Below, piece after piece: positions 10,895 through 13,990 of a DNA stretch of 41,232 bases; the first letter of the stretch is position 1; each line of letters begins with the position of its first letter. The stretch is taken from IMG/VR virus record IMGVR_UViG_2877263951_000005; one strand, written 5' to 3'. The position numbers and the translations under genes are program-made. Source of the stretch: a virus (lineage: Duplodnaviria; Heunggongvirae; Uroviricota; Caudoviricetes). Under the pieces are notes generated by a model, which was given only the letters and a program-made list of their open reading frames with translations, did no database searches and was not told where the DNA came from.

Positions 10895-10971
10895 GGCCCT
10901 TTAGCTCAGTTGGTCAGAGCGAGCGACTCATAATCGCCAGGTCGCTGGTTCAAGTCCAGCAAGGGCCACCA
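10895..10971 (+). tRNA. tRNA with CAU anticodon (ileX/ileZ-like tRNA-Ile2, or Met)
   Basis: 77 nt, ggcccttt...ctcataa...ttcaagtccagcaagggccacca. Very similar to E. coli ileX as I recall it. Confidence 0.85.
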
Positions 10972-10972
10972 A

Positions 10973-11049
10973 CCACCACTAGCTCATCCGGATAGAGCAT
11001 CAACCTTCTAAGTTGACGGTGCGAGGTTCGAGTCCTCGGTGGTGGGCCA
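10973..11049 (+). tRNA. tRNA-Arg (UCU)
   Basis: 77 nt with anticodon loop cttctaa, T-arm cgagg-ttcgagt-cctcg, and acceptor ccaccac/gtggtgg (C1-G72). Confidence 0.8.
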
Positions 11050-11051
11050 GC

Positions 11052-11127
11052 GCCGACTTAGCTCAGCAGGCAGAGCAACTGACTTGTAATCAGTAGGTCA
11101 CCAGTTCGATTCCGGTAGTCGGCACCA
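11052..11127 (+). tRNA. tRNA-Thr (UGU)
   Basis: 76 nt. thrU-like apart from D-loop changes, with anticodon loop cttgtaa. Confidence 0.9.
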
Positions 11128-11130
11128 TAT

Positions 11131-11205
11131 GCGGGCATCGTATAATGGCTATTACCTCAGCCTTCCAAGCTGATGATGCGGGTTCGATTCCCGCTGCCCG
11201 CTCCA
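11131..11205 (+). tRNA. tRNA-Gly (UCC)
   Basis: 75 nt, gcgggcatcgtataatggctattacctcagccttccaagc... It appears identical to E. coli glyT as I recall it. Confidence 0.9.
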
Positions 11206-11319
11206 TGACCTTTCTTAAAGTACTCCAACCTACTGAATCCTAAGGGATACGGCTTTAAGCCTCCTTGCAGAGTTACTTACTGTAACCCACTGTGTAACCC
11301 TCTCAGGGCATACAGACAT

Positions 11320-12924
11320 ATGATTCAGCTATCCAGTAGTCACAAACTTCCAGCAGTCTACTATCTCTACCAGCGTAACGGCGTCTACTACTTCCGTCTT
11401 AGGGTCAGACAATCAAACAATGATAGAATGACCTCAATATCATTACGGACCAAGGATAGACGCACCGCTATGGCTTACTCAAGGCACATAAAGGCAGCAC
11501 TCAAGGCAATACACGCAGACAGACCCAACGCTACCTACGAGGAAATGAGGGAACACCTTAAGGACATCGCTGAGTGTGAACTGTCTATGGGCCGTTCAGA
11601 TCTCTTTGAGCCTGACATGAGGGATATCTACCGGGACCAATACGGAGAACTTGGTGAGAGCCTTACCGATGCTCTGGCTAGTGAGCCGCTAAGCATTGAC
11701 CAGCATCGTTACATCAATGAGGCCCTGAAGGTGCTAAAAGCCTGTATGAGGCGTATCGAAGCGGGAGACAGTCAGCCTCTGATAGATTACGTCGATCTTT
11801 TTAATGATATTGATAGGCAAGATAACCAAGCAGACTCTGTGTCCCTATCTGTTAATGCTCCAGAAGTAAAACCAGAAGTTACGCCTAGCATTACCATAGC
11901 GAGCCTCTTTGAGCAATACGAAGCGGAGAACTATCAGAACTGGAAGCCTGCAACCTTAAGGGAAAACAAGGCGTCACACGCTGCGTTAATCGAAATATTC
12001 GACCATCTGGGTCTCAATGCAGACGCTAACAGGGCTGACATGCTTAGGGTCCGTGATGTGCTCCAGCAGTTACCTAGGAACCGTAAGCAGCGCTTCAAGG
12101 ATGTCCCACTTGCTGACCTGTTGAGCCGTGAAGATAAGACAGATTGTCTGGATGTCGTTACCATCAACAACAAGTATCTTATTAAGATGGCTGCTGTCTT
12201 TAGGTGGGCTGTGCGCAATGACTTGATTAAAAAGAACATGACTGAGGGTCTGGAGCTTAAAGTCCCTCAGCGTAAAGCCTCAGGGGCCCGTAACGCCTTC
12301 TCTACGGAGCAGGTGGGGCAACTACTGGTCGCAGCTAAGGCATACTCTCAGAAGACCTCTGGTAAGCCGTATCATTATTATGTTACCGCCTTGGCTGCTA
12401 TCACTGGGGCGAGACTCAATGAAATAGCCCAACTACAGGTCAAAGACGTCAGGACCACTGAGGCGGGAACCGTTTATATTCATATCAATGAAGACGATAG
12501 TAGTCTACCCGGTAAGAGCATCAAGAACGCTCATAGTGACCGCTGTGTGCCTCTGGTCGATGGGGCCTATGGTTTTATATTGGCTGACTTTATGGCGCTT
12601 GTAGAGACCCGTAGAGGCGCTGACGGTGATGACGCTATGGTGTTCGATGGTCTGCGTCTCATGAAGAACGGTTACGGTGAGCAGGTGAGTAAATGGTTTA
12701 ATCGGACGTTGTTGCCTAAAGTCCTCGTAGACCGTAGCGGCTTAGCGTTTCACTCGTTTAGACATACAGTTGCGACCCAGTTAAAACAACATGGGGTCGA
12801 GTTGGTGTATGCACAGGCGATCATGGGGCATAGTTCAGGGTCTATTACGTACGACCGTTATGCTAAAGAGGTCGAGGTTGATAGGCTGGTCAATGTGATG
12901 GCTGATGTTTATAAGGAGACCTAG
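11320..12924 (+). CDS. Tyrosine recombinase/integrase (unusually long, 534 aa)
   Basis: Catalytic signature ...ITGARLNEI..., HSFRHTVAT, GHSSGSITYDRY. It lies 114 bp downstream of tRNA-Gly. Nucleotide style is rich in cttaag/cctaagg words. Confidence 0.85.
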   Translation: MIQLSSSHKLPAVYYLYQRNGVYYFRLRVRQSNNDRMTSISLRTKDRRTAMAYSRHIKAALKAIHADRPNATYEEMREHLKDIAECELSMGRSDLFEPDMRDIYRDQYGELGESLTDALASEPLSIDQHRYINEALKVLKACMRRIEAGDSQPLIDYVDLFNDIDRQDNQADSVSLSVNAPEVKPEVTPSITIASLFEQYEAENYQNWKPATLRENKASHAALIEIFDHLGLNADANRADMLRVRDVLQQLPRNRKQRFKDVPLADLLSREDKTDCLDVVTINNKYLIKMAAVFRWAVRNDLIKKNMTEGLELKVPQRKASGARNAFSTEQVGQLLVAAKAYSQKTSGKPYHYYVTALAAITGARLNEIAQLQVKDVRTTEAGTVYIHINEDDSSLPGKSIKNAHSDRCVPLVDGAYGFILADFMALVETRRGADGDDAMVFDGLRLMKNGYGEQVSKWFNRTLLPKVLVDRSGLAFHSFRHTVATQLKQHGVELVYAQAIMGHSSGSITYDRYAKEVEVDRLVNVMADVYKET

Positions 12925-13011
12925 AGGAGACCATAGTCTAGGATGACACTTACTACAGACCTGTGTGGTCATGTTTTTGACTCATAGTTTTCTCTACTTG
13001 TCAAGGATAAT

Positions 13012-13034
13012 TAATACGACTCACTATAGGGAGA
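13012..13034 (+). promoter_or_regulatory. Phage T7 class III consensus promoter (23/23), +1 = G13029
   Basis: taatacgactcactatagggaga is an exact match to the T7 RNAP consensus from -17 to +6. The flanks do not resemble the common vector contexts I know. Confidence 0.85.
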
Positions 13035-13231
13035 AGGGACACAAAAAGTTTTCTCTTCTAGGACAACTAACCGTAACTTATCGCATCCTTTCAGGGGCGG
13101 GATGACCAATTACAGACACCAAGCGTTCTACTTAAAGTGAATGCTTCCTGTGTGCTCTGGGTCAGTCGATAAGTGAATAGCAATAAGACACAATCATCTT
13201 AATTATGGTCTCTAGTCCCTACAGGGGCTTA

Positions 13232-13371
13232 ACTTAAAGTTAACTTAAAGACACAATTAAAGATTAACTTATAGTATTACTTAAAGTTAACTTAAAGACA
13301 CAATTAGAGATTAACTTTAAGTATTAAATAAAAGATTTAATTAAAGACCAATTAAAGATTAACTCTAAGGG
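13232..13371 (+). repeat. AT-rich tandem repeat, 47-bp unit x ~2.9, built of cttaaag/attaaag words
   Basis: 13232-13278 and 13279-13325 are 44/47 identical. A degenerate third copy runs to ~13371. Confidence 0.9.
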
Positions 13372-13421
13372 AATACCTTAAGGGGTGATGATATTTATAA
13401 TAATCAATCACCAAACCTATA

Positions 13422-13492
13422 GGTCTTCTCTAGGGTCTCTCTATAGGTCTTCTCTATGGTCTCTCTATAGGTCTCTCTAGGGTCTCCTCTAG
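13422..13492 (+). repeat. Iteron array: 6 tandem 11-12-nt units ggtct(t)ctcta(t/g)
   Basis: ggtcttctcta gggtctctctata ggtcttctctat ggtctctctata ggtctctctag ggtctcctctag. Confidence 0.9.
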
Positions 13493-13512
13493 GCATTACC
13501 CCCAGAAGCTAA

Positions 13513-13552
13513 CTCTATGGCCCTCTATGGTCCTCTATGGTCCTCTATGGCC
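13513..13552 (+). repeat. 4 tandem 10-nt units ctctatgg(c/t)c
   Basis: ctctatggcc ctctatggtc ctctatggtc ctctatggcc. Confidence 0.9.
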
Positions 13553-13600
13553 CTGTACGTCATTCTTTAGGATGCCCTGTAGTTTCGTATAGCCTGATGC

Positions 13601-13646
13601 CTAGAGAGACCCTAGAGAGACCCTAGAGTGGCTCCTAGAGAGACCC
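13601..13646 (+). repeat. Inverted iteron array: ctagagagacc x3 plus one degenerate copy
   Basis: ctagagagacc is the exact reverse complement of the ggtctctctag unit at 13470-13480. A further inverted copy, ctagaggagacc, overlaps the integrase stop codon at 12921-12932. Confidence 0.9.
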
Positions 13647-13807
13647 TCCCAGTAGCTCCGCACAGCTACATCGTCATCATCATAGTATTCAATCTCAAAG
13701 TCATTCTGTTTGCATCCTGTTGTCCTGCTGGTCTCCCTTCGCTTGGGGACTTTGAGTAGGTCAGTGGGGGTGCGACTTCAGGGTGCAAACAAAAAGGAAA
13801 TCAAGCG

Positions 13808-13990
13808 ATGTCTCAACAACCACAACAACCACAACAACCACAACAACCACAACAACCACAACAAGAAATCAGCATCATTAACCTCGACCAGCTTGTGTCC
13901 ATGACCTCAGTTGAAATTGCTGAGCTGACAGGCAAGGAGCACCGAAATGTCCTTCGTGATATTCGTAAGATGCTCGAAGAACTTAACGCG
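13808..13990 (+). pseudogene. Rha-family (Phage_pRha-like) regulatory protein, N-terminal 61 codons only, cut by IS1
   Basis: MSQ(QPQ)n...MTSVEIAELTGKEHRNVLRDIRKMLEELNA, then an IS1 end at 13991. RBS aaggaaa is upstream. Confidence 0.65.

Follow-up and report, generated by a model that had tools for sequence, protein, structure and literature searches.

A truncated integrative element with an exact T7 promoter in a prophage tRNA-Gly gene, and its intact relatives as probable satellites of virulent T7-like phages

The DNA analysed here is a stretch of 41,232 nucleotides assigned to a tailed phage (Duplodnaviria; Heunggongvirae; Uroviricota; Caudoviricetes; IMG/VR record IMGVR_UViG_2877263951_000005), referred to below as the window. 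Between positions 10,895 and 13,990 it contains an array of tRNA genes followed by a tyrosine integrase gene, an exact T7 promoter, several groups of short repeats and the beginning of a gene for a Rha-family regulator. The segment is probably an inactivated left-hand fragment of a small integrative element. The family to which it belongs is widespread in Enterobacterales, its members measure 4.2-7.6 kb, and we take them to be probable satellites of virulent T7-like phages. The copy in the window is broken: the element is inserted in a prophage-borne tRNA-Gly(UCC) gene, and everything beyond codon 60 of its first gene was lost to the insertion sequence (IS) IS1.

Phage T7 and its relatives serve as the textbook example of virulent phages and are widely used in biotechnology and phage therapy. 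In the full-text literature that was searched, outside which most subscription journals lie, we found no natural parasite of the T7 group and no description of satellites of T7-group phages or of chromosomal elements with T7 promoters. The preliminary description of the segment had named no known integrative element carrying a consensus T7 promoter, and the same literature contained none.

A satellite is the simplest account of the elements because they combine an integrase and attachment (att) sites with helper-type promoters, an origin-like region and both end signals in the correct order and orientation. The capsid-fold protein of the larger members, the phage-like composition and the lack of replication and virion genes of their own point the same way. 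One of three readings in the preliminary description had been a satellite or hitchhiker that stays silent until a T7-like phage infects; it is the one best supported by the varied promoters, the mimics of both genome ends, the capsid-like protein and one circular or tandem contig. On balance we favour the view that the elements form an undescribed satellite family working mostly by cis-mimicry, with a promoter switch, an origin made of a promoter plus AT-rich DNA, and a split pseudo terminal repeat that would be assembled on excision.

Promoters and the family of intact elements

The 23-nt T7 promoter consensus (-17 to +6), TAATACGACTCACTATAGGGAGA, has a single match in the window when up to three mismatches are allowed, the exact copy at 13012-13034; none of 100 shuffles gave a match. 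The site is identical over 24-27 nt to the T7 promoters phi6.5, phi9, phi10, phi13 and phiOR, and its 23 nt are also identical in phi17. The predicted start is the G at 13029, from which transcription would run rightwards to the repeats and the Rha gene. No host-type promoter (sigma-70 type) stood out above chance.

Loci and contigs compared with the window carry L numbers. The exact promoter is kept in L001 (two copies), L002, L041 (two copies), L042 and L047/L048. In most loci a pattern scan placed T7-group promoters on the plus strand, 60-1300 nt past the integrase stop; L014 and L015, of the divergent E. coli/Shigella type, have the promoter match about 2.5 kb downstream of it. The region that determines polymerase specificity differs among the elements, and T7, K11, Vibrio-N4 and Pectobacterium-PPWS4 types were distinguished. 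The Escherichia coli and Shigella copies have the T7 type, often twice. The copy of Klebsiella pneumoniae ATCC 13883 (L004) has a T7-type promoter and AATTAGGGCACACTATAGGGAG, the consensus promoter of phage K11, which is also present in many metagenome contigs, up to three times per contig and often beside the T7 type. The promoter of the Proteus cibi copy, AATTAACCCACACTATAGGGAG, occurs five times in exact form in the 38.5-kb T7-like Vibrio phage N4, and the core shared by the Enterobacter and Buttiauxella copies, TAACTATCACTATAGGGAG, is exact in three viral contigs of about 40 kb. These exact occurrences in T7-like phages and viral contigs identify the promoters of the elements as authentic natural promoters of T7-like phages. 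Promoter type may track the local phage population and so record an arms race.

A degenerate second promoter-like site, TCAATACGACTTACTAATAGGAGA, was seen past the repeats in the mini form described below (L002 16508-16535; L041 about 9790-9830). In L041 it is preceded by AATCAATACGA repeats. The window copy does not have this second site.

DNA related to the segment (80-95% identity) is present in 388 of 5426 complete E. coli genomes, always in the chromosome, so that the segment is not confined to this assembly, and intact relatives keep the promoter. In every E. coli locus examined the element follows actS and adjoins the tRNA-Gly(CCC) gene glyU. The block consisting of promoter and leader was found in 91 of the 5426 genomes and is unannotated in RefSeq. 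The integrase gene of the window is 94.7% identical in DNA to that of L001 and 82% identical to that of L004, and parts of the control region gave patchier matches (74-97%) to the same two loci. Integrase relatives with 65-87% identity were found in 17 species representatives, from Klebsiella, Lonsdalea, Rouxiella, Pectobacterium, Enterobacter, Buttiauxella, Citrobacter, Shimwellia, Proteus, Serratia and Edaphovirga and including the divergent E. coli/Shigella type (L014, L015); across Enterobacterales the relatives span 65-97%. Most of the 17 representatives sit at tRNA-Gly(CCC).

The preliminary description had proposed that untruncated copies, bounded by direct repeats of the tRNA-Gly 3' end, should be found. 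Such copies exist, and they keep the promoter and the repeats. Nine loci contain units of 4.2-7.6 kb, with three to seven genes, that are flanked on both sides by the tRNA-Gly 3' end as a direct repeat of 17-27 bp. Clustering of open reading frames (ORFs) revealed a canonical layout in 11 of the 17 loci, with all genes on the promoter strand: integrase; optionally a 210-aa ORF overlapping the integrase stop; about 1 kb free of genes; a variable DNA-binding protein of Rha, KilA-N or Ant-like type; a protein of 54-76 aa; a DUF6971 protein; a protein of 326-402 aa; about 450 nt without long ORFs; and attR. The DUF6971 protein and the large, HK97-fold capsid-like protein are encoded in most of the species representatives and Klebsiella-type copies. 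Most E. coli copies are devoid of both; they have a mini form of about 4.2 kb that consists of integrase gene, control region and a gene for a KilA-N protein, with a 157-aa ORF in some of them, and the L001-type module of DUF6971 and large protein was found in only two of the 5426 E. coli genomes.

Pfam and PHROGs searches of the intact units detected no polymerase, primase, portal, terminase or tail genes. The inventory of cargo suggested in the preliminary description thus yielded no RNA polymerase, a capsid-like protein in many units and, in some, the RAZR defence gene discussed below. The proteins have no detectable similarity to T7 ORFs, and blastn set for distant matches found no counterpart of the segment in 50,697 phage records. 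The T7-like oligonucleotide style noticed earlier, different from that of the flanks, was borne out by strand-specific tetranucleotide profiles. The profile of the element correlated with that of T7 at r=0.37 and those of intact relatives at 0.52-0.60, whereas the flanks gave values of about 0 with T7 and 0.64-0.80 with the E. coli chromosome.

At glyU, a second and unrelated integrase island often lies in tandem directly past attR of the element (L001 21432-23384; L002 18360-19586); the island in L002 carries an ars operon and defence-like genes.

Mimics of genome ends, control region and encoded proteins

The mature ends of T7-like phages are made by cuts at both boundaries of the terminal repeat. 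The boundary between unique right DNA and the start of the repeat (T7 39744-39785) is the most conserved part of the genome end across Studiervirinae, and a clear copy of this stretch, here called the start mimic, lies 200-330 nt before attR in intact elements. In L004 it reads GCTTTAAGAAATTACCACAAAAATCTGAGGGGATATGTAATAG...CTCCCCCCGTAG, and in Klebsiella phage ChM-G5 the corresponding sequence is CCTTTAAGAATTTACCACAAAAATCTGAATGGGTATCTCACAG...CCCCCCATAG. The boundary between the repeat end and unique left DNA reads CTCTGTGTCCCT/ATCTGTTA in T7 (143-165); in its shorter form it is TGTGTCCCT/ATCTGTTA in T7, ChM-G5 and YeF10 and GTCTCCCTATCTGTTA in PPWS4. Its counterpart, the end mimic, lies within the integrase gene. 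The core of the end mimic in the window, TCTGTGTCCCTATCTGTT (11836-11853), provides the codons for S-V-S-L-S-V in a variable linker of the integrase. This 18-mer is identical in the window, L001, L004, L007 and L008, and its flanks vary. A chance origin of the 20-mer that the integrase gene shares with T7 was considered and dropped, as the sequence is conserved and lies exactly at the T7 terminal-repeat boundary.

Two hidden Markov models (HMMs) were built only from the ends of T7, ChM-G5, YeF10 and PPWS4, which avoids circularity, and were scanned against both strands of bacterial loci totalling 443 kb. The start model matched, at E<=0.05, the attR-proximal site only (L004 1.9e-8, L009 4.8e-6, L002 6.5e-6, L001 1.2e-4, and others), and at E<=0.02 the end model matched the integrase-internal site only (L004 5.3e-7, L001 4.9e-6, window 5.2e-6, and others); weaker matches fell elsewhere. 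Among the 23 metagenome contigs that carry the leader (L051-L073), 17 had an end-model and 13 a start-model match, wherever the contig reached far enough. The layout recurs in L041-L048. The window keeps the end mimic only.

The elements thus carry mimics of both boundaries of the T7-group concatemer junction. In the integrated state the two mimics are at opposite ends of the unit. Excision or concatemer formation would place them around attP as a pseudo terminal repeat, with a predicted length of roughly 0.9 kb for L004 and roughly 0.35 kb for L044. The predicted boundaries of packaged DNA are after CACAAAAATCTGAG-N8-10 and after TGTGTCCCT.

Three metagenome contigs found through exact protein sequences, L044-L046, contain the capsid-like gene, the start mimic, the end mimic and the integrase in that order, as a circle or a tandem array would. 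The two ends of L044 overlap exactly over 141 nt, equal to the k-mer size of the assembler, and its unit is 6487 nt. L043, L047 and L048 were also considered as circles and rejected; they are integrated copies broken at repeats. L047 (ENA ERZ27262136 k119_4437) and L048 (ERR589551, human gut, k127_6227), independent gut-metagenome contigs with the mini form in its integrated state, both end inside the start-mimic core CACAAAAAT, which could reflect a branch of the assembly graph at a conserved motif or real DNA ends. Among other relatives, L008 is without the capsid module and has a single start mimic (13962) directly past a short ORF, and L009 has two start mimics (13783 and 15940). These arrangements suggest loss or gain of modules, or composite elements, within the family.

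Downstream of the promoter lies a leader that is nearly invariant across genera in six genome loci (among them L002 16016-16135 and L004 12472-12590, and also L006, L008 and L020) and is present in the 23 metagenome contigs mentioned above. In 20 of these 23 a T7- or K11-type promoter lies within about 250 nt of it. RNAalifold folded the leader into three helices with 33 pairs and two compensatory changes, and with a single-sequence z of -1.9 support for the fold is weak. An Rfam search of the control region gave no leader family and only a chance miRNA match. The leader could be a structured RNA, such as a processing site of the RNase III type.

The primary origin of T7 is designed as a promoter followed by an AT-rich stretch. 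The AT-rich array past the leader resembles weakly, with about 66% identity over about 100 nt, the AT-rich stretch past phi1.1B in T7 (5912-6007), and is a candidate for the unwinding part of a T7-type origin. The repeat arrays at 13417-13647, which contain GGGTC and TGGTC words, are either iterons or clustered recognition sites of the T7 primase. The primase pentamers GGGTC, TGGTC and GTGTC occur 21 times in the 883 nt of 12925-13807, a density of 23.8/kb compared with 4.5/kb in the whole window and 8.0/kb in T7; 1000 shuffles of the same region gave a mean of 4.3 +/- 1.9 and a maximum of 11. Because the repeats are not independent and the enrichment, which holds for the E. coli copies, is absent from the Klebsiella relative L004, the clustering is only a hint.

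The large conserved protein had no sequence match in Pfam, PHROGs or PDB. Profile comparison with T7 gp10A found no similarity, tblastn against the 50,697 phage records gave no match, and tblastn against plasmids gave one weak match (33% identity). HMM comparison of the small ORF, the DUF6971 protein and the capsid-like protein with all T7 ORFs found nothing. The AlphaFold2 (AF2) model of the large protein (pTM 0.61, mean pLDDT 62.8), however, matches HK97-fold shells almost exclusively. Foldseek against viral models returned 136 matches at E<=1e-3, and among the best 50 of them nearly all that are named are capsid or head proteins. The model thus suggests an HK97-fold, capsid-like protein. 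A charged helical stretch and a conserved tail form the end of the DUF6971 proteins, which might, as a guess, be scaffold-like. Directly past the capsid-like stop there is a hairpin followed by UUUAUUU, lineage-specific and stable (z -2.0 to -4.2), which recalls the Tphi terminator after capsid gene 10 of T7. Between the hairpin and the start mimic several lineages have a tiny hydrophobic ORF of 21-46 aa with one predicted membrane helix (Table 1).

The 210-aa ORF that overlaps the integrase stop in L004 (11624-12256) was identified by PADLOC as PD-T7-4 (E=8.3e-99 for the L004 protein that was scanned), whose defining features are a zinc ribbon and a DUF4145 (HEPN) domain. ORFs of this type are present in eight of the 17 representatives (L004, L006, L008, L010-L012, L016 and L020) and in L047/L048. 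The window copy and most E. coli copies lack it. PD-T7-4 has been renamed RAZR, an abortive-infection RNase directed against T7 and T3 that assembles around the portal (PMC13017515), and its gene was described as 'often overlapping an integrase gene' (PMC9519451).

The window copy and its insertion site

The order given in the preliminary description, running from the tRNA array through spacer, integrase, promoter and repeats to a Rha gene cut at 13990, is correct in all its parts (Table 1). The tRNA array, however, does not belong to the element. A lambdoid prophage of E. coli FDAARGOS_944 has the ORF6N gene and all four tRNA genes found here, with a holin gene directly behind them. The window matches this prophage through base 11205 and no further. 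Since the array of FDAARGOS_944 is unoccupied and the match ends at 11205, the element is inserted in the prophage-borne tRNA-Gly(UCC) gene. The array is part of the lambdoid prophage, and only the 3' end of tRNA-Gly serves the element as attachment site. This is a secondary site, as the relatives use the chromosomal glyU, tRNA-Gly(CCC). The first tRNA of the array, called Met-CAT by ARAGORN, is annotated by RefSeq as tRNA-Ile in the same array elsewhere.

Table 1. Coordinates of the features of the element in the window, and of the hairpin and tiny ORF in its relatives
Feature	Position	Strand	Basis or remark
Four-tRNA array	10895-11205	+	ARAGORN: Met-CAT, Arg-TCT, Thr-TGT, Gly-TCC
tRNA-Gly(UCC), last of the array; 3' end is attL of the element	11131-11205	+	ARAGORN
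Spacer between attL and integrase, 114 nt	11206-11319	+	sequence
Tyrosine integrase, 534 aa	11320-12924	+	Pfam PF00589 Phage_integrase, E=1.2e-17
Mimic of terminal-repeat end, inside integrase ORF	11835-11869	+	nhmmer, phage-end model, E=5.2e-6
Promoter module: conserved upstream block and promoter	12937-13063	+	alignment with relatives
Exact T7 class III promoter, TAATACGACTCACTATAGGGAGA	13012-13034	+	23/23; 87 nt past integrase stop
Conserved leader, about 115 nt	13068-13185	+	alignment; downstream of promoter
AT-rich array, TTAACTTAAAG-type units, periods 11/23/47	13229-13364	+	
Direct repeats CTATAGGTCTCT, x6 (12-nt array)	13417-13491		
Direct repeats CTCTATGGCC, x4 (10-nt array)	13513-13554		
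Inverted array CCTAGAGAGAC, x4	13600-13647		same unit as in the direct arrays, inverted; convergent with them
Conserved block ahead of first gene	13690-13807	+	alignment with relatives
Rha-family regulator gene, first 60 codons	13808-13989	+	Pfam Phage_pRha, E=7.6e-10
IS1 copy ending the element, after Rha codon 60	13990-14758		
Truncated copy of 1264-bp IS, abutting IS1	14759-15707		
Hairpin past capsid-like gene, L004	15838-15885		
Hairpin, L009	15663-15710		
Hairpin, L010	15895-15942		
Hairpin, L011	15886-15933		
Hairpin, L044	4719-4766		
Tiny hydrophobic ORF, L004	15941-16006		
Tiny hydrophobic ORF, L001	20952-21023		
Tiny hydrophobic ORF, L010	15943-16059		
Tiny hydrophobic ORF, L009	15743-15883		
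Tiny hydrophobic ORF, L044	4805-4942		

The spacer behind attL contains two TGTAACC words (11281-11287 and 11293-11299) and words resembling the T7 terminal repeat, CTTAAAG and CCTAAGGG. Pairs of TGTAACC are kept beside attR of intact relatives and are putative arm-type sites of the integrase. In a circular form the spacer would fall within the pseudo terminal repeat. The integrase is matched best, at 99% identity, by a cluster (formed at 90% identity) that has 769 member sequences and bears the name 'site-specific integrase [Shigella flexneri]'; a match to DUF6538 stayed below the Pfam threshold (25.1 bits, cut-off 27).

The promoter module is doubled in L001, L041 and L025. The conserved block ahead of the first gene holds an inverted repeat (13704-13724/13774-13794) and is kept in relatives before differing first genes, which are of the Rha, KilA-N or Ant-like type. 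Compared with the 5' part of the Rha gene of L001, which is intact (234 aa), the Rha fragment of the window shows 89% identity. It opens with a perfect tandem repeat, CAACAACCA x5.7 (13814-13864), encoding (QQP)n; the annotated L001 gene starts about 5 nt upstream of the shared region and appears to be without this repeat. Just ahead of the promoter module, 12914-12936 is a short inverted remnant of repeats that are abundant in E. coli copies. These copies (L041 8767-8935; L001 and L002 past the integrase stop) have 3-13 tandem GATGACCATAGGC units before the promoter and, behind these units, oppositely oriented TGTGGTCC repeats; the copy number differs among strains.

Since the IS1 copy abuts a truncated copy of the 1264-bp IS, no target duplication is visible, as had been noted in the preliminary description. 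What is left of the element in the window is attL, the integrase gene including the end mimic, the promoter with the leader and the repeats, and the first 60 codons of rha. The small ORF, the DUF6971 gene, the capsid-like gene, the start mimic and attR are missing downstream, and neither self-comparison nor blastn of the intact L001 and L004 against the window revealed other pieces of the element. With the operon, the start mimic and attR lost, the window copy is a remnant, which could at most be transcribed and perhaps replicated, and would not be packaged. At least one other Shigella-derived contig has the same type of truncation: L025, an IMG/VR isolate-genome region, has an integrase 100% identical to that of the window and the same IS1 truncation, together with the duplicated promoter module and one extra IS.

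The element and the prophage are one mobile element nested in another. The tRNA array (also at 9719-10029 of L035) lies between the ORF6N gene and the lysis genes, and the lysis and head genes of the prophage are absent from the window. The window contains four IS1 copies (6303-7071, 13990-14758, 23163-23930 and 30942-31710), and three full copies of the 1264-bp element, which is of the IS3 family (8913-10176, 28112-29375 and 39480-40743), besides the partial one. This very high IS load has reshuffled the prophage, a pattern typical of Shigella.

Proposed cycle, alternative explanations and implications

As satellites, the elements would be silent in the tRNA-Gly gene until a virulent T7-like phage infects the cell and its single-subunit RNA polymerase recognizes the consensus late promoter or promoters. 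Transcription would proceed rightwards through the leader and the AT-rich and repeat region into the operon, encoding the regulator of Rha, KilA-N or Ant type, the small protein, the DUF6971 protein and the capsid-like protein and closed by the Tphi-like hairpin and U-run. The promoter, the AT-rich stretch and the clustered primase sites would act as an origin of the T7 type, allowing the phage replisome to amplify the element. Excision by the integrase, giving a circle or concatemer, would bring the attR-proximal start mimic and the integrase-internal end mimic together, and the resulting pseudo concatemer junction could be cut and packaged by the phage terminase. Where present, the capsid-like and DUF6971 proteins may alter or build the shell. 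After transfer the integrase would insert the element into tRNA-Gly again.

Several points weigh against this scheme. Helper dependence and packaging, like excision and replication by the phage replisome, are read from anatomy. The circular or tandem signature comes from one contig, and a tandem chromosomal array gives the same signal. A scan of IMG/VR with the integrase gave eight matches, most of them from isolate-genome regions and none free or concatemeric; the predicted attP junction, searched as an exact pattern, was absent from JGI metagenome contigs; and all 23 leader-bearing contigs have the integrated layout. No phage record matches the DNA of the element or the capsid-like protein, the model of which is of only moderate confidence. 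The pseudo terminal repeat, at about 0.35-0.9 kb, is longer than the 160-280 bp of the phages. The end mimic of L002-type E. coli minis is degenerate, L017 has neither mimic, and the enrichment of primase sites is not family-wide. Finally, the RAZR gene of some members fits defence at least as well as dependence on T7 or T3.

The preliminary description had also considered an infection-triggered defence or decoy. As an island that is not transduced, such an element would let the phage polymerase switch on toxic or interfering products, either Rha/KilA-N-type or head-poisoning capsid-like proteins, while its origin-like and end-like sequences soak up replisome and terminase, and it would spread by other routes. 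We regard such an island as the main rival of the satellite reading, but as rather unlikely. In its favour, RAZR is experimentally active against T7 and T3 and portal-triggered (PMC13017515; PMC9519451), its gene overlaps the integrase stop in eight of the 17 representatives and in L047/L048, the promoter ties expression strictly to infection, with no sigma-70-type site standing out above chance, and phage records, IMG/VR and the JGI contigs yielded no virion-derived copy. A pure island, however, needs neither mimics of two boundaries in the right order and orientation nor an integrase with att repeats kept intact across many genera. The defence idea holds in part for some relatives, which carry PD-T7-4/RAZR, but not for the window copy, which has no RAZR, like most E. 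coli copies. The anatomy, moreover, equals the minimal set that makes a plasmid transducible by T7: according to PMC13236587, citing Chung and Hinkle 1990, plasmids with a T7 origin, a pac site and a terminal repeat are replicated, packaged and transduced by this phage. As satellites commonly interfere with their helpers, defence and hitchhiking are not exclusive.

Another earlier suggestion, that the segment is what remains at the left end of a temperate T7-like (Autographiviridae) prophage after loss of its polymerase, replisome and structural genes, did not hold up and seems very improbable. T7-like cis signals and composition would fit it, T7-like phages with integrases exist (LUZ100), and the window copy really is truncated. 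In nine loci of different genera, however, the same compact gene set lies between att repeats 4.2-7.6 kb apart, with no RNA polymerase, DNA polymerase or other replisome gene, portal or terminase between them and with proteins that resemble neither T7 ORFs nor any of the phage records. The two boundaries lie at opposite ends of the unit, as they would in a genome that is small but complete; for one end of a 40-kb genome this would not be expected. That a laboratory T7 promoter was brought in by chance, by cloning-vector contamination or by misassembly is hardly conceivable, even though the 23-mer is the sequence used in expression vectors. Zero chance matches are expected, the flanks are not vector DNA, and the block of promoter and leader recurs in 91 independent complete E. 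coli genomes, with the leader and its promoters in metagenome contigs as well. Other natural T7-group promoters take the same place in relatives, and an artefact can be considered refuted.

The proposed satellites would add a new family to the phage satellites already known, since the defining gene sets of PICI, PICMI, cf-PICI and PLE are not matched. General traits of satellites were found, namely an integration module with defined ends and the lack of a full set of virion or replication genes. PICI have an integrase, an Stl-type repressor, a primase or initiator with an origin, and terS or a capsid-morphogenesis module in about 10-15 kb; in the elements described here, of 4.2-7.6 kb, no primase/rep, terS or repressor family was detected. 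The cf-PICIs (e.g. EcCI2), also of about 10-15 kb, encode capsid, portal, protease, connectors and terminase, compared with only the capsid-like protein, DUF6971 and a small ORF here. Ccm of SaPIbov5 is a homologue of the capsid protein of its helper, whereas the capsid-like protein of the elements has no sequence similarity to gp10 of the presumed helper. PLE of Vibrio cholerae is about 18 kb, with its own replication initiator and many genes, and a helper protein directs its integrase. Like the cycle proposed here, PLE is induced by a virulent phage (ICP1), uses helper replication and packaging and blocks the helper; unlike it, induction is not through promoters of the helper polymerase.

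The RAZR papers and the work on PICMI (phage-inducible chromosomal minimalist islands) of Vibrionaceae come nearest in the literature. PICMI are likewise very small integrative satellites, parasitic on virulent phages, with few genes. According to PMC10803314 they are packaged as concatemers, carry defence cargo and, like the 4.2-kb E. coli mini form, have no capsid-remodelling genes; they sit next to fis with a core of integrase, AlpA and primase. The present elements differ in their tRNA-Gly site, in the absence of AlpA or primase matches (Pfam, PHROGs), in their helper-polymerase promoters and terminal-repeat mimics, in their Enterobacterales hosts and in their presumed helpers, T7-group podoviruses. 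The minimal cis set of promoter-type origin, pac/junction and terminal repeat is shared with laboratory T7 phagemids as these are summarized in PMC13236587. Phagemids are man-made constructs with genuine T7 fragments, whereas the elements occur naturally, have an integrase, att sites and genes of their own, and share with T7 only short motifs: about 40 nt of junction core, about 20 nt of end core, and the promoter. The PD-T7-4/RAZR locus corresponds in architecture to the DUF4145 ORF overlapping the integrase stop in part of the elements. The RAZR papers (PMC9519451, PMC13017515) treat it as a single defence gene, and a term search of their main text found neither 'satellite' nor 'T7 promoter' for the locus.

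For the window copy itself, a truncated remnant, the message is modest. If the satellite reading of the family is true, a T7-type phage would transcribe, amplify and possibly spread DNA that is present in about 1.7% of complete E. coli genomes and in many strains of Klebsiella, Pectobacterium, Proteus and Serratia. Phage-therapy cocktails of T7-like phages would then face possible unintended gene transfer and lowered yield. It would also bear on how the PD-T7-4/RAZR gene riding on some elements is read, and on the use of T7 promoters in wild strains. The family would be a natural case of induction by promoters of the helper polymerase, with a packaging signal split across the attachment site and hidden in coding sequence, and would offer a very small natural chassis for T7-based transduction.

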